24,000 bases of DNA from Oleidesulfovibrio sp. (GTDB lineage Bacteria; Desulfobacterota; Desulfovibrionia; Desulfovibrionales; Desulfovibrionaceae). The notes beneath the pieces are model-generated. The model was given only the letters and a program-made list of their open reading frames with translations, was not told the DNA's origin and did no database searches. Positions 10,910 to 20,680 of this stretch are shown here, in pieces. Where the stretch lies: the NCBI RefSeq assembly GCF_047973035.1, contig NZ_JBKEBF010000041.1, forward strand, positions 1,407 to 25,406. Reading direction: 5' to 3'. The position numbers and the translations under genes were made by a program. Position 1 is the stretch's first letter. Each line of letters begins with the position of its first letter.

Positions 10910-12211
10910 TCAGCTATCCAGAATATCACCGGCAGGCAGCCGATGAACTGTTCCGGCCTCATCTTCCAGCAGCAGCCAGCCGTCATCATCCACGTCGACA
11001 ACACGACCGGATAACACAGCTTCGCCCCTGCCTAACCGAATATGCCTGCCCGTAATGCCGGAAAGTTCTTTCCAGCGGGCAACCACTGCCGGACCACCAC
11101 CGGAGCGGAACATTTCATACATAGCTTCCAGTTCTTCTAAAATGCAGCGGGCAACCTGCGCGCGAGGATATTTTCTGACAGGAGCTGCGAAGCTAAGGGG
11201 GACGTTTGATGTTGCCTGTGCAATACCATCGGTCGGGACAGCCTGTTTACGCGCCAGAACGTTGTCCTGCGCCAGCTGGCAACCGTTCTTGCCGCCAGAG
11301 TTTTTTACGCCGCCTGATTTAACCGATGAATCCGGCGTGTGCAAGGCCGACCGCTGACATGTGCCGCCCATGCAATCACTGCTACCCGAACAAGAGGTAC
11401 CGGAACTGTCCGCAGGCCCGACTGTTCCGGCCTCTGCCATCTGAGCAGCCTGATTCAAGGAAATTGCAATCCCGGAAATTTCCGGCGGCAAGATGGACGT
11501 ATCAGTGTTCACATTGATGCCTATGCCTGCAACGGCATAATCAAGCACATCCGCAACCAGTCCCGCTTCAATAAGCACACCGCTCATCTTGCATCCGTAG
11601 ACCAGTATATCATTGGGCCACTTGGCCACAGCCGGTACACCGGCAAGACGTCGTACGGCCTGAGTTACCGCTACGGCAGCCATCAGGGTAAGCACCGGTA
11701 CAGCCTGCGGGTCACACTTGGGACGCAACACCACGGACATATAAACACCGCCTCCGGCAGGCGAAAGCCACGGTCTGCCCTGTCTGCCGCGTCCTGCAGT
11801 CTGTTCGTCCGCAAGCACTACAGTCCCCTCCGGTGCGCCGCGCTCTGCAAGCACACGGGCTTCCATGTTGGTAGAAGGAGTGCTTTGCAGATGTACAATC
11901 TCCCCCTTACCCAGCAACACCGTTTCCAGCCCATGCGTTACAGCATCGGGCTGAAGGCTGTCGGCGTCACCGCTCAGCCGATAGCCGCGGCGCGTCATGG
12001 ACTCTACAGGATAGCCGGCCTCTCTGATAAAGCGCATGTGCTTGGAAACCGCAGCACGCGACATACCAAGCTTCCGGCTCAGTTCTTCTCCGGAAACCCA
12101 TTCACCGCCACTGTTTTGCAATGCTTCTAGTATGTTGGAGCGAACTGTTCCGCCCTGGCCATGTTCACCGGAAACCAATTGTAAACCTATATTCTTGATA
12201 AAAGTTGACAA
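10910..12211 (-). CDS. birA: bifunctional biotin-[acetyl-CoA-carboxylase] ligase / biotin operon repressor, with an internal low-complexity insertion of about 90 aa
   Basis: N-terminal winged HTH (ILEALQNSGGEWVSGEELSRKLGMSRAAVSKHMRFIREAGYPVESMTRRGYRL; compare E. coli ...GMSRAAINKH...). Ligase signature GRGRQGRPW, then KWPNDI. C-terminal SH3-like tail GRVVDVDDDGWLLLEDEAG. There is no in-frame ATG at the 5' end. Candidate starts are TTG 12211 and TTG 12178, and both lie at or within the operator. Confidence 0.9.
   Translation of the reverse strand: MSTFIKNIGLQLVSGEHGQGGTVRSNILEALQNSGGEWVSGEELSRKLGMSRAAVSKHMRFIREAGYPVESMTRRGYRLSGDADSLQPDAVTHGLETVLLGKGEIVHLQSTPSTNMEARVLAERGAPEGTVVLADEQTAGRGRQGRPWLSPAGGGVYMSVVLRPKCDPQAVPVLTLMAAVAVTQAVRRLAGVPAVAKWPNDILVYGCKMSGVLIEAGLVADVLDYAVAGIGINVNTDTSILPPEISGIAISLNQAAQMAEAGTVGPADSSGTSCSGSSDCMGGTCQRSALHTPDSSVKSGGVKNSGGKNGCQLAQDNVLARKQAVPTDGIAQATSNVPLSFAAPVRKYPRAQVARCILEELEAMYEMFRSGGGPAVVARWKELSGITGRHIRLGRGEAVLSGRVVDVDDDGWLLLEDEAGTVHRLPAGDILDS
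12179..12211. promoter_or_regulatory. candidate BirA operator (bioO-like imperfect palindrome) overlapping a TTGACA -35 box for bioB
   Basis: TTGTAAACC (12179-12187), a 15-nt spacer, then AGTTGACAA (12203-12211). The right half matches the reverse complement GGTTTACAA at 7 of 9 positions. The E. coli bioO half-sites are TTGTAAACC and GGTTTACAA. TTGACA (12205-12210), a 16-nt spacer and GATAGT (12227-12232) form a plausible sigma-70 promoter reading toward bioB. Confidence 0.6.
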
Positions 12212-12298: not shown

Positions 12299-13270
12299 AT
12301 GACTATTGATTATTTCGCTCTGTGCAACCGCATTGTAGCCGACGCTTCTGCCGCAGCCACTGCCGAAGAAGCAACGGCACTGCTCACTCTGCCTGCTGAC
12401 GATACGCTCTCATTGCTTTCCTGTGCTCAGCGCATACGCGCAGTGCATGGAAAACCGGCATTCACCTGCGGCATTGTCAACGCGCGTTCCGGTCGCTGTG
12501 CAGAAAACTGCGCCTTCTGCGCGCAGTCAGCACACCATCAGACAAACGCCCCTATACATGAGATGCTCAGCGTACCGCAGCTGATCGAACAGGCAAAACG
12601 CCTTGCCGATGCAGGTGCAGACCGCTTCGGCATTGTTACCAGCGGTACGCGCCTGAACAGCCACGACATAGACACAGTATGCGAAGCCGTAGCACGCATC
12701 CGTTCCGAAACCGGTCTTTCACCCTGTGCATCGCTGGGACTGCTGAACTACCAGACCGCAGTGACTCTGCAGCAGGCAGGGCTTGAGCGCTATCACCATA
12801 ATCTGGAAACCGCACGTAGTTTCTTTCATGCCGTCTGCACCACCCATGACTACGACGAAGACATACAAACCGTCAAACTGGCACGGCAGGCAGGCATTGC
12901 TGTGTGTTGCGGAGGTATTCTTGGACTTGGAGAATCGGCAGAGCAGCGCATCGAGCTATCTCAGAGCATTGCAGAAACCGGCGCGGACTCCATACCGCTT
13001 AACTTTCTTACCCCCATTGCCGGCACCCCGCTGGAGCACAAGCTTCCGCCAGCCCCCTTTGAAGCACTTCGCTGCATTGCCGTTTTCCGGTTCATGCACC
13101 CCTCGCTGGATATTCTGGTGGCCGGCGGGCGCGAATCCACCCTTGGCGACTACCGTTCATGGACATTCATGAGCGGAGCCAACGGCCTTATGGTGGGCAA
13201 TTATCTGACTACATCAGGCCGCAGCCTTGCCGACGATTACGCCATGCTGCGCGCCATGGGAGTAAAATAA
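12299..13270 (+). CDS. bioB: biotin synthase (radical SAM)
   Basis: Radical-SAM cluster motif CAENCAFC in ...NARSGRCAENCAFCAQS... The block YHHNLETARSFF resembles E. coli YNHNLDTS. SD AAGGA upstream of ATG 12299. 323 aa. Confidence 0.95.
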   Translation: MTIDYFALCNRIVADASAAATAEEATALLTLPADDTLSLLSCAQRIRAVHGKPAFTCGIVNARSGRCAENCAFCAQSAHHQTNAPIHEMLSVPQLIEQAKRLADAGADRFGIVTSGTRLNSHDIDTVCEAVARIRSETGLSPCASLGLLNYQTAVTLQQAGLERYHHNLETARSFFHAVCTTHDYDEDIQTVKLARQAGIAVCCGGILGLGESAEQRIELSQSIAETGADSIPLNFLTPIAGTPLEHKLPPAPFEALRCIAVFRFMHPSLDILVAGGRESTLGDYRSWTFMSGANGLMVGNYLTTSGRSLADDYAMLRAMGVK

Positions 13271-14637
13271 TGACCGTACGTTCTGCAGAAACTGTCCGTC
13301 TGCGTGCTCTTGACGCTACGCATGTCTGGCATCCGTTTACCCAGATGGCCACATGGCACGAAGACAACCCGCTCATCATCAGTGCAGCCGAAGGTAACTG
13401 GCTTATAGACTCCGACGGCAACAAATATCTGGACGGTGTATCCTCATTATGGACCAACGTGCACGGGCACAGACATCCGCATATTGATGCTGCCGTCAGA
13501 GCACAGCTGGACAAAGTCGCACACTCCACGATGCTCGGTTTATCCAACCAGCCTGCAGTGGAACTGGCAGCAATGCTGGCAGAAATAGCACCGGAAGGGC
13601 TTAACCGCGTATTCTACTCCGACAGCGGCTCAACAGCCGTGGAAGTAGCCCTTAAAATCGCCTACCAGTACCAGTGTCAACGAGGCCCAGCCGGTGACGG
13701 ACGCCGCAAATTCCTTTGCATCCGCGGAGCTTATCACGGCGACACCGTAGGGGCTGTCGCCTTGGGCGGTATTGATATTTTCCACGCAGTTTACGGCCCG
13801 CTGCTGTTTGAAACCATAAAGGCTGAAGCACCGCATTGCTACCGCTGCCCTTTCGGACAGGATTCAGCAACCTGCAAAAAAGAGTGTTTTACCCACCTTG
13901 AAGAAACCGCAGCACGTCACAGCCACGAGTTGGCTGCGCTGGTCATTGAGCCTCTGGTTCAGGGTGCCGCAGGTCAGATAACTCATCCTGAAGGGTATCT
14001 GAGCCATGCACGCAAGTTGTGTGACAAATACGGTATGTTGTTGATTGCCGATGAAGTAGCTGTGGGATTTGGCAAAACAGGTACCATGTTCGCCTGCGAG
14101 CAGGAAGCAGTACGCCCTGACCTGCTGTGTCTGGCAAAAGGAATTTCCGGCGGCTATCTGCCTCTTGCCGCAACTCTGGCAACTGACGAAGTGTACAGCG
14201 CATTTCTGGGTAGTCATGCAGAATGCCGCACGTTCTTCCACGGGCATACGTATACGGGCAATCCCCTTGCCTGTGCTGCAGGAATCGCCAGCCTTGAGCT
14301 GTTTAGAACAGAAAAAACTCTTGAACGGCTGCAGGATACTATCCGTCTTTATTCACAGTTGCTTGAACCGCTGGCCGCTCACCCGCACGTGGGGCAGATA
14401 CGCCGCCGCGGCATTATGACCGGCATCGAGCTGGTGGCAGATAAGGCCACAAAAACACCTTACCCGTTTGCGGAACGTACCAGCCACAAAGTGGTTATGG
14501 CAGCGCGCAGACGCGGAGTTATCGTGAGACCGCTGGGTGATGTGATGGTGCTTATGCCGCCTCTCAGCATCACGCCTGAGGAATGCCGGTTATTGGTTAG
14601 CGTTGTATCTGAAGCAATTGAAGAGGTGACGGGCTAG
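13270..14637 (+). CDS. bioA: adenosylmethionine-8-amino-7-oxononanoate aminotransferase
   Basis: Class-III aminotransferase motifs GAYHGDTVGA and LIADEVAVGFGKTGTMFACE, with the PLP-lysine context LCLAKGISGGYLPLAA. ATG 13270 shares one base with the bioB stop (TAATG) and has a GGGAG SD. The track ORF begins 37 codons upstream, inside bioB. Confidence 0.95.
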   Translation: MTVRSAETVRLRALDATHVWHPFTQMATWHEDNPLIISAAEGNWLIDSDGNKYLDGVSSLWTNVHGHRHPHIDAAVRAQLDKVAHSTMLGLSNQPAVELAAMLAEIAPEGLNRVFYSDSGSTAVEVALKIAYQYQCQRGPAGDGRRKFLCIRGAYHGDTVGAVALGGIDIFHAVYGPLLFETIKAEAPHCYRCPFGQDSATCKKECFTHLEETAARHSHELAALVIEPLVQGAAGQITHPEGYLSHARKLCDKYGMLLIADEVAVGFGKTGTMFACEQEAVRPDLLCLAKGISGGYLPLAATLATDEVYSAFLGSHAECRTFFHGHTYTGNPLACAAGIASLELFRTEKTLERLQDTIRLYSQLLEPLAAHPHVGQIRRRGIMTGIELVADKATKTPYPFAERTSHKVVMAARRRGVIVRPLGDVMVLMPPLSITPEECRLLVSVVSEAIEEVTG

Positions 14638-14846: not shown

Positions 14847-15212
14847 ATGAGTATGCATAGATCATCTGACGCCCCAGTAGACACGCAGCAGCCGCAGGCT
14901 GCCCCCCGTTTGCCAGAACTCATCGAAGGAACATTTTGTTTTCCGCACGATGATCCCGTGTATGCAGAGCACTTTCCCGGTTCGGCATGCGTACCCGGCT
15001 CCATGCTGATTCAAGCTTTCGTCATGGCGGCACGGCAGCACGGCATTACACAGAATCTGACGGCAAAGGGCTTCCGCTTTCGCCGTTTTGTTGCACCTGC
15101 GAACCATCGGTACGCCATGCAGCTGCGCAACGTATGCGGCAGTGCCAGCTACCAATGCATACTCACTGCCGACGGTACCCGCGCCGTTACAGGAACGCTC
15201 ATATGCAGCTAG
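14847..15212 (+). CDS. short FabZ-like hot-dog-fold (3R)-hydroxyacyl-ACP dehydratase homolog (His present, catalytic Glu replaced by Gln)
   Basis: ...FCFPHDDPVYAEHFPGSACVPGSMLIQAFVMAA... aligns by eye to the FabZ core [21 protein letters not shown]. His42 is the CAC codon at 14970-14972. The position equivalent to the FabZ Glu is Gln56 (CAA, 15012-15014). At 121 aa it is shorter than typical FabZ (about 150 aa). Confidence 0.6.
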   Translation: MSMHRSSDAPVDTQQPQAAPRLPELIEGTFCFPHDDPVYAEHFPGSACVPGSMLIQAFVMAARQHGITQNLTAKGFRFRRFVAPANHRYAMQLRNVCGSASYQCILTADGTRAVTGTLICS

Positions 15213-15991
15213 CTTTCAACAACGGAGCCGCACTCATACTGGGCGGCAGCAGCGACATAGGGCTGGCAACAGCCGGCATGCTTATCAAGAAAGGCGTGCC
15301 GGTATGCCTTACTGCCAGCAGTGAGCAAAGCATGTGCCGGATACGGCAGACGTTTGTAGTACAGGAACAAACTTGCCCGCCGGTCATCATCGCCGACTTA
15401 AAAAATGCAGACGCAGCCGACACCTTGCCGGAAGCAGCCACAGATGCTCTGGAAAAAGCGTACGGCTCTTCCCTGAGCCTCAGCTATCTGCTTGATCTTG
15501 CCCAGACAGACTATGAAACGCTTATCGCCGCAGCAGAGCCGGAGATGATCAGCAGTTATATAGCCGCCAACATTGCATGGCGGGGCAGGATGTTACGTGC
15601 AGCAAGCCGTGCCATGCTTCGCGCACGCTACGGACGCATGGTGTTTGTATCATCCACGGCAGCCGTACTGCCCAACGCAGGGCAAGGAATGTACAGCGCG
15701 GCAAAACAGGCAAGCGAAGCTCTGTACAGAAGCATCGGTGTAGAGCTGGCCCCCCGTGGGGTAACCACCTGCGCCCTCCGGCTCGGGTATGCAGATGCGG
15801 GGCGCGGGGCGGGCTACCTGCATAAAAACGACAACGGACGGCAAGAGCAAATCACGGCCCGAATCCCCCTAGGGCGCGCCGTGACCATTACTGAAGCGGT
15901 TTCCACACTGCTGTTTCTGCTTTCAGACAACGCCTGCGCCATAAACGCGACCACCATCACCATGGATGGCGGCCTGACCGCCTGCAAATAA
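15203..15991 (+). CDS. short-chain dehydrogenase/reductase, 3-oxoacyl-ACP reductase (FabG)-like
   Basis: Rossmann motif ALILGGSSDIGLA. Catalytic Ser...Tyr-x3-Lys in VFVSSTAAVLPNAGQGMYSAAKQA. ATG 15203 has an AGGAA SD and overlaps the upstream stop by 10 nt. The 5' part of the 334-aa track ORF is an out-of-frame read-through of the previous gene. Confidence 0.85.
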   Translation: MQLAFNNGAALILGGSSDIGLATAGMLIKKGVPVCLTASSEQSMCRIRQTFVVQEQTCPPVIIADLKNADAADTLPEAATDALEKAYGSSLSLSYLLDLAQTDYETLIAAAEPEMISSYIAANIAWRGRMLRAASRAMLRARYGRMVFVSSTAAVLPNAGQGMYSAAKQASEALYRSIGVELAPRGVTTCALRLGYADAGRGAGYLHKNDNGRQEQITARIPLGRAVTITEAVSTLLFLLSDNACAINATTITMDGGLTACK

Positions 15992-16073: not shown

Positions 16074-16487
16074 ATGACACAGCCCCTGCCAGAAACCGCA
16101 ATCACTGAAACTGTCTGCCGTATCATCGCTGAAGTTCTGGACATTTCACCCGATGAAATTTTTTCCGATACGTACGTCATACGCGATCTGGAAACAGAAT
16201 CCATCGACCTGCTTGAATACGGCGTGGGACTGAACGCGGCATTCGGTATTCCTGTGCGGGACGAGACGGTTTTTCTAAAATCCCTGCGTGTACATATAGA
16301 AGAGGCAAAACAGCACAATGCCCCTGTTCAGGGCTACCTTGCTACCCGTTATCCGCACCTTGCTCCTGAACGCATTGACGAAATACTGCAAACCGTAACA
16401 GATGGTCCTGTGTTGCGGGTGCAGGACATTGTCGAGTACGTGCGGCATGCACAGAAATCAGCCGAAGCCGGATGCCATGACTGCTAA
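16074..16487 (+). CDS. acyl carrier protein-like, with a C-terminal extension of about 55 aa
   Basis: ACP helix II motif DLETESIDLLEYGVGL (compare the canonical DLGADSLDTVE; the Ser in ESID is the likely phosphopantetheine attachment site). 137 aa, versus about 78 aa for AcpP. The protein ends ...SAEAGCHDC. Confidence 0.8.
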   Translation: MTQPLPETAITETVCRIIAEVLDISPDEIFSDTYVIRDLETESIDLLEYGVGLNAAFGIPVRDETVFLKSLRVHIEEAKQHNAPVQGYLATRYPHLAPERIDEILQTVTDGPVLRVQDIVEYVRHAQKSAEAGCHDC

Positions 16488-17895
16488 GCTGCACCGCGTA
16501 GTCATAACGGGCTACGGGGCGATCACGCCATTGGGGAACACGCCGGATGCCATCTGCGATGCGCTGAAAAACGGGCAGACCGCCTTTGAATGTTCAGCGC
16601 ACCTTGCAGGTGTGGCTCAGTGCCCTGCAGATTTTTGCGCAGACACAGCCCTAAAGGGCTGGCGCCATCGCCGCTACCTGAATCGCGGAGCAGCAATGGC
16701 CGTTGCCGCGACAAAGCAGGCCGTCCGATCAGCCGGACTGCAAAACAGTATACCGTACAATTGCGGTGTGTTTGCAGGCAGCGGCCCTAATCTGGACATA
16801 GGCAGTGACTTTGCGGACATCCAAGGTGGAAACCTTGATCAGGCCGGATTATCCGCACTCTGGATGCTGCGGTATCTGCCCAACACTGCTGCGTCTGCCA
16901 TCAGTCAGATGCAGGGGGCTCACGGCGAAAACATGACCTTGGGCACAGCCTGTGCCGCTTCATTGCAAGCAATCGGCGAAGCATTCAGACGCATCCGGTA
17001 CGGAGTCATGCCTATGGCGCTGGCTGGCGGCGGCGATTCGCGCCTGTCACATGGCGGGCTGCTGGCATATGCCAAGGCCGGAGCTCTGGCTCCGTGCAGT
17101 AAAACGAAAAATGACGGTTCCCTGCCGCCCGACCAGGCCTGCCGCCCCTTTGATACTTCGCGACAAGGCTTTGTTGCCGGAGAAGGCGGAGCCATGTTCG
17201 TACTGGAGTCGTTGGAACATGCACTAGCCAGAGGAGTACGCCCGCTGGCAGAAGTTTGCGGGTATGGATGTTCCATGGACGGTCATGCCATGACCGCCCC
17301 ACACCCTGAGGGTGCATACGCCGAGTTGGCAGTTCGAAGCGCATTGAATGAAGCGGGGATAATGCCTCATGAGCTTGCCGCAGTATGCGCCCACGGCACC
17401 GGAACCCCCCGCAATGATGAAGCCGAAGCGGCCATGCTAGACCGGCTGTTTGCAGGCAACACCTCGTCGCCGATTCTGGCGCTGAAGTCATGGACAGGAC
17501 ATTGCGCTTCCGCCTGTGGTGCAGTGGAGCTGGCAGTGCTGCTTGCCTGTACAGGTCAGGGATTTTTGCCTGCCATCCGCAATCTGCGCCTACCGCTTAT
17601 AGATGAACTTAGCTTTCTGACCGGTCAGCAATCATTCAGTTGCGCACAATGGCCCCTCGACGCTTCCAAAAAACATGAGAGCGCAACCGAGCACAATCTC
17701 GGACTAAATGCTGTGGAATCACCTTCCTTCCTCTCTTGTTCCAGCGGTAATGGTCAGCATAACGCACATAACAGGGCGCAGGAAATAACTACCCAAGGCA
17801 CACGCAGCAACAGTCACGTATTGCTGGAGAGTTTTGGTTTCGGCGGTCAGAACGCGGCATTAGTTGTGCGACCATTTGCCGGAAGTAGCTCATGA
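16477..17895 (+). CDS. beta-ketoacyl-ACP synthase I/II-like (Cys-His-His triad) with a low-complexity insertion near the C-terminus
   Basis: Active-site Cys in MTLGTACAASLQAIGEA (TGT codon at 16951-16953). His motifs CAHGTGTPRNDEAE and LKSWTGHCASACG. C-terminal ESFGFGGQNAALVV. ATG 16477 overlaps the ACP stop by 11 nt. Confidence 0.9.
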   Translation: MTAKLHRVVITGYGAITPLGNTPDAICDALKNGQTAFECSAHLAGVAQCPADFCADTALKGWRHRRYLNRGAAMAVAATKQAVRSAGLQNSIPYNCGVFAGSGPNLDIGSDFADIQGGNLDQAGLSALWMLRYLPNTAASAISQMQGAHGENMTLGTACAASLQAIGEAFRRIRYGVMPMALAGGGDSRLSHGGLLAYAKAGALAPCSKTKNDGSLPPDQACRPFDTSRQGFVAGEGGAMFVLESLEHALARGVRPLAEVCGYGCSMDGHAMTAPHPEGAYAELAVRSALNEAGIMPHELAAVCAHGTGTPRNDEAEAAMLDRLFAGNTSSPILALKSWTGHCASACGAVELAVLLACTGQGFLPAIRNLRLPLIDELSFLTGQQSFSCAQWPLDASKKHESATEHNLGLNAVESPSFLSCSSGNGQHNAHNRAQEITTQGTRSNSHVLLESFGFGGQNAALVVRPFAGSSS

Positions 17896-18072
17896 GTAAG
17901 GCAAAGCATCTGGCACTGTTCCGGATGAAACGTATTGCGTGTTTCAACCGGCATACAAAACACTGTATCCCATAGAGTTCAAATATTTTTTTCGAACTAT
18001 GCAAATCTGCACAACGTCAATCAGCGCAAACCCGCATCAATAGTAAGCAACGCCCACCATCTGACTAACGCC

Positions 18073-18828
18073 ATGACAAGCCATACCATCACTATACATA
18101 GCGGCCTTACGCCAGACACAGTTACCGGACGCAGTAATATATTTGTGATACCGCACTCGCTGGAAAAAGTTCACCGCAACACCATATACGGCACACTTGC
18201 ACTGCCAGCAGAGGCTCCGGCATGCTGGTATGTAACGGAGGCCCTTGCCCAGCTTGCCGCCCTGCATACTCGCTGGCTTTGCAATTTCTCCTGTCATGCA
18301 TTTCTGCTTAGTGTACGTGAGCTTCCGTTATTTCCAACCCCAGTTCCGGACACCCGCAAGGCATATGCGCCTGAGCCTGAAACGGCGTTCCCGCTCCCGC
18401 AGCAGAAGGAGCCCACCATGCCTCTGCTGCTGCATGGACCAGCACACTTTTTTGAATCACAACCGGCAGCGCTGCCGGCCCTGACGGCGCACGACAAGCC
18501 CCTCGTCAATGTCAGCGGAGGTCATGTCAGCGGCCAGAGTCTTCAGCCGCACCAAACAGCCTCAGACACCAACGGACTATCCAACCCTGACGTAAAGAAA
18601 ACTCAATGTTGCACAAGTCCGCACTGCTACCCCATGCAGGCCAGCCTGACAGCACAGACCGGCACAGATGCAAACCGTGCGTTTGAGTACGCTGTACAGC
18701 TTAAGCTGCCGGATCAGACAGTTACCGGAACTTTACGCACAGGTACCACTCCGTATGATGCACGATTTTCTGCAGAAATTCTTTCCAGTCGCTACCGGAG
18801 GCTCTTTTCATGGTTGCAGCATCGCTAG
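18073..18828 (+). CDS. hypothetical protein, degenerate FabZ-like hot-dog fold split by a Pro/Gln/Ser-rich insertion (Glu present, His absent)
   Basis: N-terminus ...FVIPHSLEKVHRNTIYGTLALPAEAPACWYVTEALAQLAALH... resembles the FabZ LPHR...EAMAQ layout, but the HFPG block is missing. Glu56 is the GAG codon at 18238-18240. The C-terminus (...AFEYAVQLKLPDQTVTGTLRTGTTPYD) looks like beta strands. The start is uncertain: ATG 18073 has no SD, and the track gives TTG 17935. The 3' end overlaps bioF by 19 nt. Confidence 0.5.
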   Translation: MTSHTITIHSGLTPDTVTGRSNIFVIPHSLEKVHRNTIYGTLALPAEAPACWYVTEALAQLAALHTRWLCNFSCHAFLLSVRELPLFPTPVPDTRKAYAPEPETAFPLPQQKEPTMPLLLHGPAHFFESQPAALPALTAHDKPLVNVSGGHVSGQSLQPHQTASDTNGLSNPDVKKTQCCTSPHCYPMQASLTAQTGTDANRAFEYAVQLKLPDQTVTGTLRTGTTPYDARFSAEILSSRYRRLFSWLQHR

Positions 18829-19970
18829 ACGCACGCATCAAAGCAATACGCAATGCAGGGTTGTACCGTTCCAGACCCGTGCCGGAAAAACGCGACGGCA
18901 AGTGGATTGAACTGGACGGCATCCGCATGTTGAACCTTGCTTCCAACGATTATCTGGGACTAGCCACTGATGCAGAGTGGCAAAAAAAAGTAGCTGCCTG
19001 CTTTGCATTGCACCCGCCTTCTGCTTCGGCATCACCTTTAGCCGGTGGGCACTCCCGCGCCATTCAGCAGGCAGAAGAAGCGTTGGCAGAATATTTCGGC
19101 TATGCGGAGTGCCTGCTTCTGCCCAGTGGCTATCAGGCGAACCTTGCCGTCCTGTGGGGGCTGTCAACAGATCAGACTACCGTTTTCTACGACAAACGCA
19201 TTCATGCCAGCAGTGCTGCCGGGCTAAGGGGAACGCCCGCCTCCCCTTGCGGCTTCAATCACAACAACATTGCCCACCTGCGCCGCAGGCTGGATGCTAT
19301 GCCAGCGTCAGATTTGGCAGGCCGCGATGCACTGGTGCTGGTGGAATCTCTTTACAGCATGGACGGCGACAGCCCCGACTTTGCGGCATTATCCGCCCTG
19401 AAGGCAGAATACAACTTTACTCTTGCAGCAGATGAGGCTCATGCCTTCGGCGTGCTGGGCAAAGGCGGTCGCGGGCTTGCCGCAGGACATGCAGACGTTG
19501 CGGTAGGAACACTGGGCAAAGCTCTTGGATTGTTCGGGGCGTTCATTCTGCTGCCGAAGGGCTGGACAGAGTATCTGTGCAATTTGGCATCGCCGCTGAT
19601 TTACTCAACGGCGTTACCTGATGCGCACGCGGCCTGCGTTGCCATGTTGCCGGAACAGCTGGCGGCCATGGATGAACAGCGCGAGCGGGTTGCCGCCACC
19701 GGCAAGCTGATGCGTGAAGAACTGCGCCTGTACGGGCTGCCCGTACACGGCAGCGCGCATATTCTGGCTGTGGAAATAGGGGACGAAGAGAAAGCAACCG
19801 CCGCTGCTGCCGCCCTGAAAAACCGGGGCATTTTTGCATTGGCGGCCCGTCACCCCACTGTACCAAAACGAAGAGCCGTCATTCGCTTCGGAATAACGGC
19901 TCTGCATACGGCCCGCGACGCTGAGGTATGCGTGCGCGCCCTTACGACGATCCTGCGAGGTATGTCATGA
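18810..19970 (+). CDS. bioF: 8-amino-7-oxononanoate synthase
   Basis: N-terminus ...LNLASNDYLGL... Motifs SLYSMDGD and AADEAHAFGVLGKGGRG, with the PLP lysine in GTLGKALG. GGAGG SD before ATG 18810. Confidence 0.9.
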   Translation: MVAASLDARIKAIRNAGLYRSRPVPEKRDGKWIELDGIRMLNLASNDYLGLATDAEWQKKVAACFALHPPSASASPLAGGHSRAIQQAEEALAEYFGYAECLLLPSGYQANLAVLWGLSTDQTTVFYDKRIHASSAAGLRGTPASPCGFNHNNIAHLRRRLDAMPASDLAGRDALVLVESLYSMDGDSPDFAALSALKAEYNFTLAADEAHAFGVLGKGGRGLAAGHADVAVGTLGKALGLFGAFILLPKGWTEYLCNLASPLIYSTALPDAHAACVAMLPEQLAAMDEQRERVAATGKLMREELRLYGLPVHGSAHILAVEIGDEEKATAAAAALKNRGIFALAARHPTVPKRRAVIRFGITALHTARDAEVCVRALTTILRGMS

Positions 19971-20680
19971 ATCATCGTTCTCCGTTGCCATGCCACCTGT
20001 TTGTTACAGGCACCGACACCGGCGTGGGAAAAACTGTGGTCAGCCTGCTGCTGCTTAAAGCATTATACGGGCGCGGGCACATGGCCCGTTACTTTAAGCC
20101 GGTACAGACCGGTTGCAGTTCTCCCGATGATGCGGACAGCGATGCCCGCTTCATCCATAAATTTTATCCGCCTCTGCATGGTGTACCGGCGGCTCAGTCC
20201 ACCGGCCTGTGCTACAAGGCTCCCAAGGCCCCGCTCTATGCCGCGCGGGATGAAGGGCACGGCATAGAGACGGAAACCATCTTGCACAGACTGGCATATC
20301 TGTGCAGGGAAAAGGCGCCCCTCGTAGCGGAAGGTGCAGGTGGCCTGCTGGTACCCGTCAATACTCAGACGACCTTTCTCGATCTTATCGAAAAAGCTGG
20401 CATTCGTCCGGTGCTGGTTGCCCGTACGGGGCTTGGTACCATCAACCACACACTCCTCTCGCTCGAGGCGCTTCGGCTGCGGGACATGAAACCGGCAGGG
20501 ATCTTGTTTGTTGAAGCAAGGGATAAACCCACTCCCGCAGCCTTGGTTCAGGAAAACATGGACGCCGTGTCCACTTTTTCCGGAATATCTGTATGCGGTG
20601 TCATACCGCATATTTCTGATTTTAGTTCTCCGCCGCCTGAAGCCATGAAAGCTGTCGGGCGGCTGCTTGATTCGCTGTAG
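19967..20680 (+). CDS. bioD: dethiobiotin synthetase
   Basis: P-loop FVTGTDTGVGKTVVS and later EGAGGLLVP. ATG 19967 overlaps the bioF stop (ATGA) and has a GAGG SD. The track ORF starts 13 codons upstream, inside bioF. Confidence 0.9.
   Translation: MNHRSPLPCHLFVTGTDTGVGKTVVSLLLLKALYGRGHMARYFKPVQTGCSSPDDADSDARFIHKFYPPLHGVPAAQSTGLCYKAPKAPLYAARDEGHGIETETILHRLAYLCREKAPLVAEGAGGLLVPVNTQTTFLDLIEKAGIRPVLVARTGLGTINHTLLSLEALRLRDMKPAGILFVEARDKPTPAALVQENMDAVSTFSGISVCGVIPHISDFSSPPPEAMKAVGRLLDSL

Follow-up and report, generated by a model that had tools for sequence, protein, structure and literature searches.

The 24,000-nucleotide (nt) stretch of Oleidesulfovibrio sp. DNA analyzed here (the window; contig NZ_JBKEBF010000041.1) contains a biotin operon in which two genes on the plus strand, at 14847–15212 and 18073–18828, encode proteins related to the hot-dog dehydratase FabZ. 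We call these proteins hd1 (121 aa) and hd2 (251 aa). As detailed below, hd1 carries the catalytic His of FabZ and hd2 its catalytic Glu, and the two proteins are probably the subunits of a single asymmetric FabZ-type 3-hydroxyacyl-acyl carrier protein (ACP) dehydratase serving the pimeloyl-ACP module formed by a ketosynthase (KAS), a short-chain dehydrogenase/reductase (SDR), and an ACP. This reading is supported by the residue pattern, the folds, the conservation within both families, and the linkage of the two genes, all of which are observed, and by the precedent of the ApeI:ApeP heterodimer. That the module holds two FabZ-like genes was already known (PMC10102598), and the new part is the splitting of the dyad between them; in the literature that we searched, the idea of complementary half-dyads was not found for this biotin module.

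The His-bearing protein, hd1, is a short FabZ/ApeI-like hot-dog protein that contains EHFPGSACVPGSMLIQAFVMAA, in which His42 is encoded at 14970–14972 and Gln56 at 15012–15014. It matches Pfam FabA (25.9 bits versus a cut-off of 23, E = 8e-6), as do 18 of 18 relatives, and a profile built from these relatives finds FabZ among solved structures, with a best E of 3.6e-9, as well as 2cf2_C. When the HFPG..PG..(I/L)E segments of FabZ are aligned with hd1, His42 falls on the FabZ His and residue 56 on the position of the FabZ Glu, which bears out the assignment that an earlier note on this DNA had made by eye; the positions that the note gives for His42, Gln56, and hd2 Glu56 are likewise correct. 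The AlphaFold2 (AF2) model of hd1, produced from a shallow alignment, has a predicted local distance difference test score (pLDDT) of 76; Foldseek matches it to FabZ with an E of 1.4e-5, and the top target-normalized template modeling (TM) score among the matches listed is 0.64, to 6qsr_A (ApeI). Hence, hd1 displays the fold and similarity of the FabZ/FabA superfamily together with the His of the HFPG motif, but Gln56 stands where, in the superfamily, the central helix begins with a Glu or Asp of the same chain. It is also devoid of the N-terminal LLVDR strand of FabZ, and it exhibits a basic FRFRRF strand-end that aligns with the RFKR segment of FabZ. A Cys in the fourth strand (Cys104, 15156–15158) is invariant in 21 of 21 relatives and shared with Escherichia coli ApeI; FabZ has no counterpart.

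As for the Glu-bearing protein, hd2 is a divergent hot-dog protein, the exact sequence of which is already on record as a hypothetical protein of Oleidesulfovibrio sp. It contains TEALAQLAALH, in which Glu56 is encoded at 18238–18240, and has no Pfam or NCBIfam match, the PF07977 and FabZ models included; neither hd1 nor hd2 attains the FabZ model cut-offs. An exhaustive profile search yields an hd2 family of at least 254 cluster representatives at E ≤0.001, typically 145–150 aa long, which is covered by no Pfam or NCBIfam model, just 3 of 109 members touching Pfam FabA (best E = 0.11). When the two families are aligned using hhalign (E = 4e-4, probability 34%), the hd2 Glu lies on hd1 Gln56, and a 14-residue gap in the hd2 family falls exactly opposite hd1 DDPVYAEHFPGSAC. 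Alignment with E. coli FabZ (E = 3.4e-4) and with ApeP (E = 1.8e-4) brings both the Glu and the N-terminal FVLLD strand into register. Searched against the PDB, the hd2-family profile matches FabZ enzymes alone, weakly (E 0.08–0.8) and with the Glu aligned. Independent support for a remote homology between hd2 and FabZ comes from the hidden Markov model (HMM) of the hd2 family, which weakly detects ordinary FabZ-type open reading frames (ORFs) in loci L060, L062, L071, L077, and L084 (E 1e-5 to 6e-4, in a small database). Direct family assignment of hd2 by PDB search, using the single sequence or an eight-sequence profile, returned nothing or chance telomerase matches and was rejected.

The AF2 model of hd2, built with 31 family sequences, reveals a hot-dog core with a pLDDT >90, consisting of strands 29–33 and 37–44, helix 51–69, and strands 74–82, 188–200, 203–211, and 216–227, to which an extra C-terminal helix is appended (residues 234–250, 18772–18822). 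The loop linking β2 to the helix is six residues long, the HFPG His loop of about 14 residues being deleted. In a Foldseek search with this model, FabZ from Pseudomonas aeruginosa (1u1z) comes first and chain B of 6QSR (ApeP) second, both with a probability of 1.00 and target-normalized TM-scores of 0.59–0.71. The protein therefore has the hot-dog fold and the Glu of an E-A-x-A-Q motif on its central helix, while the His motif and a match to a curated model are missing. Both the gap and the short loop agree with the earlier note, in which hd2 had been described as keeping Glu56 and missing the HFPG block. Taken together, profile alignment and structure prediction assign the FabZ His to hd1 alone and the FabZ Glu to hd2 alone. 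The motifs of both are FabZ-type, and neither has a MaoC or hydratase-2 match in Pfam scans or in the PDB profile search.

The same division of residues is seen throughout the two families, which we followed in 21 genome loci found with the hd2 profile, the corresponding Desulfovibrio vulgaris locus, two contigs (L025 and L026), and 21 metagenome loci that the hd1 profile detected. The hd1 His is invariant (42 of 42 relatives), and the residue at the FabZ Glu position in these 42 is His in 14, Glu in 9, Gln in 8, Gly in 5, Asp in 3, Arg in 2, and Asn in 1; DVU2560 of D. vulgaris keeps the His and has Arg. Drift to Gly, Arg, and Asn is unlike the behavior of a catalytic acid and is what one would expect of a position that faces a dead site. 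Conversely, the hd2 Glu is invariant in 139 of 139 family representatives and in 15 of 15 further metagenome copies, none of which has the His loop. Such a pattern is not due to chance. In the 139 representatives the Glu is thus conserved at 100%, the Gln of the motif at 99%, Arg67 (18271–18273) at 99%, His65 (18265–18267) at 96%, and His75 (18295–18297) at 91%. The last three residues sit on the central helix or immediately behind it, at places occupied in FabZ by the hydrophobic residues of the tunnel.

The two genes are also linked. Where enough upstream sequence is available, hd1 lies ~3 kb upstream of hd2 in 16 of 19 hd2 loci, and where enough downstream sequence is available, hd2 lies downstream in 15 of 16 hd1 loci; the D. 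vulgaris, L025, and L026 loci share this order. The one exception among the hd1 loci is metagenome locus L037 (5899–9262), in which hd1-SDR is followed by an unrelated minus-strand gene where ACP-KAS-hd2 is expected, and which may reflect a rearrangement or a mis-assembly. A divergent sub-lineage (L043, L044, L054, L055, and L061) has bioB directly upstream of the module, Gly at the Glu position of hd1, and Q or H variants of the HAFLL motif in hd2, the Glu of which is kept. In D. vulgaris (Nitratidesulfovibrio) Hildenborough, the orthologues of hd1 and hd2, at the same operon positions, are DVU2560 and DORF42491, the latter having 197 aa and no counterpart of a 105-residue insert present in the window's hd2. 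These orthologues have been reported as "FabZ-like domains," with no description of a split dyad or a heterodimer (PMC10102598). Random barcode transposon sequencing (RB-TnSeq) of that strain found the cluster to be required for growth without biotin, nine clustered genes within DVU2558:DVU2565 being needed (PMC10102598). Because eight numbered genes plus an unnumbered ORF make nine, DVU2560 and DORF42491 would both be among them. No enzyme of this Desulfovibrio pimelate route has been characterized, the need for the cluster being known from genetics (PMC10102598).

A precedent for such a pair exists in aryl-polyene (APE) synthesis, where ApeI and ApeP have been described as "heterodimeric dehydratases with a single active site" (PMC8041823), and 6QSR, "The Dehydratase Heterocomplex ApeI:P," is the crystal structure of the pair from X. 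doucetiae. ApeI of E. coli CFT073 (c1196, 117 aa) starts past strand β1 of FabZ and has GHF...PGVAQLD, that is, a His and an Asp, while ApeP (c1188, 154 aa) has an MLLLEDV first strand, no HFP motif, and LPGWFALELMAQ, that is, a Glu; the X. doucetiae chains follow the same pattern. Like hd1 and hd2, ApeI and ApeP are separately encoded hot-dog proteins of one fatty acid synthase (FAS)-like cluster, in which their genes are not adjacent. ApeI resembles hd1 in being small (about 117–121 aa), in having no strand β1, and in keeping the FabZ His. ApeP resembles hd2 in being larger, in keeping β1, in having no HFP motif and a helix Glu in E-x-x-A-Q (E(L/M)MAQ in ApeP), in its C-terminal extension, and in the position of its gene directly after the ketosynthase gene. 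The window proteins therefore reproduce the ApeI:ApeP pattern of a small His-bearing and a larger Glu-bearing subunit from one cluster. There are differences as well, since hd1 and hd2 belong to a biotin operon rather than an aryl-polyene cluster and their presumed substrates are ω-carboxy C5 and C7 acyl-ACPs rather than aryl-polyenoyl-ACPs. Moreover, the β2-helix loop is much shorter in hd2 than in ApeP, the invariant His/Arg/His set belongs to hd2, and the second position, Asp in E. coli ApeI, is variable in hd1. The pair is not part of an aryl-polyene cluster, its flanking genes being bioB, bioA, bioF, and bioD, with no ApeH, ApeK, ApeC, or transport genes. When the module proteins are compared with the E. 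coli APE proteins by BLAST, hd1-ApeI and hd2-ApeP are the best pairs, yet neither is significant (E 0.2–0.5; hhalign probability 16% for hd1-ApeI and 24–48% for hd2-ApeP). Filing hd1 and hd2 as members of the ApeI and ApeP families was rejected, the sequence similarity being too low; by analogy, the pair would work like ApeI:ApeP without being a member of its families.

The comparison can be extended to other hot-dog dehydratases. FabZ shares the hot-dog fold and the HFPG..PG..E-A-x-A-Q motifs, which are split over hd1 and hd2. It is, however, a homodimer within a hexamer, with both residues in each chain and two sites per dimer, while hd1 and hd2 have one residue each; hd2 also differs by its missing His loop, its extra C-terminal helix, and its polar residues where the FabZ tunnel is hydrophobic. 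In the double hot-dog dehydratase domains of type I FAS and polyketide synthases (PKS), the first fold provides the His and the central helix of the second provides the acid. Such domains have one active site per hot-dog pair, as proposed for hd1:hd2, but they are single polypeptides with an Asp in DxxxQ/H, whereas hd1 and hd2 are encoded by two genes with three others in between. HadAB and HadBC of Mycobacterium tuberculosis have been reported to combine two hot-dog proteins into a heterodimer that has one active site (PMC4491049). They are of the MaoC/hydratase-2 type, with Asp and His both in HadB and with HadA and HadC noncatalytic, whereas hd1 and hd2 divide the dyad itself; neither of them has a hydratase-2 motif that unites Asp and His in a single subunit.

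From this body of evidence we infer that the two proteins form a dimer, which residues meet in it, what its substrates are, and what roles the conserved Arg and His residues play. In the FabZ-ACP complex of Helicobacter pylori (HpFabZ-ACP), one monomer provides His58' and Arg110', which docks ACP, and its partner provides Glu72, the gate residue Tyr100, and Gly78, Gly79, and Phe83 of the tunnel (PMC5143422). We mapped hd2 onto HpFabZ by the ungapped register of the helix, so that the following placements are those of an alignment and not of coordinates: Glu56 corresponds to Glu72, Ala62/Ala63 to the Gly78/Gly79 fork, and Arg67 to the back-door Phe of FabZ (Glu+11), and His75 is located one or two residues before the gate position. 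In the predicted heterodimer, hd1 would contribute His42 and dock ACP through its basic FRFRRF strand-end, and hd2 would contribute Glu56 and form the body of the pocket that takes the substrate. The other, symmetry-related site would be dead, with no His loop on the hd2 side and Gln in place of the Glu on the hd1 side. The β3-β4 loop of hd2, with its 105-residue insert, would be at the entrance of this dead site, where the insert is probably tolerated.

With Arg67 and, nearby, His65 and His75, the hd2 pocket would be polar and cationic, suiting the free ω-carboxylate of 3-hydroxyglutaryl- and 3-hydroxypimeloyl-ACP. Such a pocket would fit the suggestion by Trotter et al. that this pathway uses free ω-carboxyl intermediates without methyl esters (PMC10102598). 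It is conceivable, and we propose it tentatively, that hd1:hd2 is a single-site dehydratase dedicated to dicarboxylic acyl-ACPs, whose short cationic hd2 pocket grips the ω-carboxylate. If true, this would explain how pimeloyl-ACP can be made without the methyl-ester disguise of BioC/BioH, and it would account for an unannotated family of at least 254 clusters found only beside biotin genes.

Several observations speak against a split-site heterodimer and have to be weighed. In sequence, hd2 resembles no dehydratase more than weakly (hhalign probability 24–48%; PDB profile E of 0.08 or worse). While precomputed Pfam annotation tags hd1 orthologues as PF22818 ApeI-like, a local Pfam scan gives ApeI-like in just 2 of 18 hd1 sequences (E = 0.025). 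Because transposon insertions within an operon may have polar effects on bioF and bioD, the genetics are not proof that both genes are needed. In 12 of 42 hd1 homologues, a Glu or Asp is kept at position 56, and there hd1 alone could be competent. Hence, the complementary half-dyads put forward in the earlier note hold for the window proteins, but the "obligate" character suggested for the heterodimer does not hold across the family. The retained acids would also be consistent with hd1 being a dehydratase by itself, as a homodimer using His42 and another acid or a water network, with hd2 having another task, for example that of a thioesterase, of a product gate or chain-length determinant, or of a factor that handles ACP. 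In line with this, hd1 is the one of the two that dehydratase models recognize, and the Foldseek matches of hd2 include hot-dog thioesterases (PA1618 and Arthrobacter 4HBT) with E-values similar to those of FabZ. We nevertheless consider this explanation unlikely, since the second position is Gly, Arg, Gln, or Asn in 16 of 42 hd1 homologues, unlike a catalytic residue, and the P..G.EA.AQ motif of hd2, its FVLLDRI first strand, and all its PDB sequence matches are FabZ-like rather than thioesterase-like. In addition, a thioesterase would destroy pimeloyl-ACP, the substrate of BioF, and the ApeI homologue needs ApeP (PMC8041823).

Another point against the heterodimer is that His65 and His75, conserved as they are, share the hd2 chain with the invariant Glu56. 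A homodimer of hd2 could thus be envisaged, with a noncanonical site made of Glu56 and either His, and hd1 and hd2 would then act as two separate dehydratases, each serving, for example, its own round of elongation. However, His65 lies on the opposite face of the helix, nine residues (~13 Å) from Glu56, Gln takes the place of His75 in 7% of the family, and hd1 would be left without an acid in most species. We know of no hot-dog dehydratase with such a geometry and regard this arrangement as quite improbable.

A final point against the heterodimer, which would also favor an hd2 homodimer, is that three loci of the D. piger group (L016, L017, and L021) have hd2 without an adjacent hd1, none being detected in these loci by a permissive HMM search. 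Their SDR-ACP-KAS-hd2 genes stand apart from other bio genes (L016:3322–6411, L017:2171–5333, and L021:1939–4951), with a gene for a small secreted protein upstream in the place of hd1 and no bioF downstream. In these organisms and elsewhere, the partner of hd2 might be the housekeeping FabZ or another hot-dog protein instead of hd1, the gene of which is not adjacent to that of hd2 in any case. This is very unlikely, given that the two proteins are encoded in a common operon almost without exception, that relaxed constraint at the Glu position of hd1 is expected of the partner of a Glu donor, and that apeI and apeP are likewise not adjacent in their own cluster. Natural hd1-hd2 fusions are absent from 157 family proteins, the long members of which have loop inserts; a 2,289-aa match (P0127) was rejected as a fusion, being an unrelated repeat protein. 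Overall, a split-site heterodimer accounts for the conservation pattern better than any of these alternatives would.

The hd2 of the window differs from typical homologues of 145–150 aa, and from its closest relative (P0002), by an insert of 105 residues (aa 83–187, 18319–18633, plus strand). The earlier note had recognized a stretch of about 100 aa at roughly 18340–18650; the insert is real, but it is located in the β3-β4 loop and not directly after the helix. It is rich in Pro (17%), Leu (10%), Thr (9%), Ala (9%), Gln (7%), Ser (7%), and His (6%), is modeled as disordered (pLDDT mostly <50), and has no tandem repeat that we could find. It is also in frame and lineage-specific, with no stop in the hd2 frame versus two and four in the other frames. 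Similar low-complexity inserts, at this loop or a later one, are present in many homologues from gut Desulfovibrionaceae and Bilophila, and Ser/Gly/Gln/His-rich ones occur in BirA (433 aa vs. ~330 in relatives) and KAS (471 aa vs. 400–436) of the window. The insert in hd2 is therefore a habit of the lineage and not a sign of decay.

The possibility that the ORF is a decaying or untranslated gene, broken by a 315-nt insertion, is extremely remote on this evidence. The absence of the insert from typical homologues and a 177-nt gap without a clear Shine-Dalgarno sequence before the ATG would fit decay, but the frame stays open over 105 extra codons, all family-invariant residues are intact, the core is modeled at a pLDDT >90, many gut Desulfovibrionaceae homologues have similar loop inserts, and the hd2 stop codon overlaps the bioF start. 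The noncoding gap extends from the KAS stop codon to the hd2 ATG (17896–18072); at most of the other loci, no such gap separates the two genes, which abut or overlap. Read from stop to stop, the hd2 frame opens at a TTG (17935), and homologues favor the ATG at 18073.

The reading of hd1 and hd2 as one dehydratase makes a step of the unsolved pimeloyl-ACP route of Desulfovibrio and related anaerobes directly testable, and it predicts point mutants that would abolish activity. If true, it would provide a function for the unannotated hd2 family and extend the ApeI:ApeP principle, in which a dyad is spread over two genes so that one site is live and the other dead, from pigment production to the synthesis of a cofactor. 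The Arg and His residues of the hd2 pocket suggest, in turn, how an enzyme of the fatty-acid type could accept a charged substrate, a problem that BioC/BioH solve by methylation in E. coli.

The operon that contains both genes occupies 12.3–20.7 kb of the window on the plus strand and is a Desulfovibrio-type extended biotin operon, an architecture first noted in Desulfovibrio by Rodionov et al. in 2004 (PMC545781). The genes are ordered bioB-bioA-hd1-SDR-ACP-KAS-hd2-bioF-bioD, with birA divergent upstream, and there is no bioC or bioH in the cluster, in keeping with the definition of such operons (Rodionov 2004; Trotter 2023). This order is shared by the D. vulgaris locus (L022) and at least 30 other loci. 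The ORF encoding BirA, the biotin ligase/repressor (10910–12211, minus strand), has orthologues adjoining bioB in related loci, an architecture as in PMC545781. The bioB ORF (12299–13270, plus strand, as are all the following) has BLAST orthologues in related loci, with Radical_SAM/BATS in the D. vulgaris locus, and is followed by bioA (13270–14637), identified from its ORF and related loci. The bioA frame opens at 13159, 111 nt inside bioB, and its likely start is the internal ATG at 13270, which overlaps the bioB stop codon. Downstream of hd1, which was identified from Pfam FabA, the FabZ-structure profile match, and AF2/Foldseek, comes the gene for SDR (15209–15991), which is similar to 3-oxoacyl-ACP reductases (Pfam adh_short_C2, E = 9e-26; NCBIfam FabG-like below cut-off). 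It is followed by the gene for a dedicated ACP of 137 aa (16074–16487; PP-binding, E = 1.4e-5) and that for KAS (16480–17895), a FabF-like ketosynthase with N- and C-terminal ketoacyl-synt domains (fabF model, E = 1e-76, below cut-off), the start of which we place at MTAKL and which has its low-complexity insert close to the C terminus. The hd2 gene, identified by its family profile, hhalign, AF2, and Foldseek, precedes bioF (18810–19970; Aminotran_1_2, E = 1e-36) and bioD (19928–20680; AAA_26, E = 2e-44).

The ATG of bioF overlaps the 3' end of hd2 by 19 nt, and the start codons of SDR, KAS, and bioD likewise overlap the respective preceding gene. These overlapping starts are consistent with translational coupling along the operon. 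A scan for promoters and terminators found no more sites than shuffled controls would account for. Downstream of the operon, genes for a pyridoxal phosphate (PLP)-dependent decarboxylase and a TrmB regulator lie on the minus strand, and the downstream neighbors in the D. vulgaris locus are identical to these. In loci from Desulfobacterales and Syntrophales, a nitroreductase-like gene is inserted between ACP and KAS (L001:4101–4793, L003:4057–4725, L004:4082–4798, L007:4035–4799, and L025:4157–4804), which neither the window nor D. vulgaris has and which Trotter et al. have already reported, in 2023, as a candidate enoyl reductase (PMC10102598).

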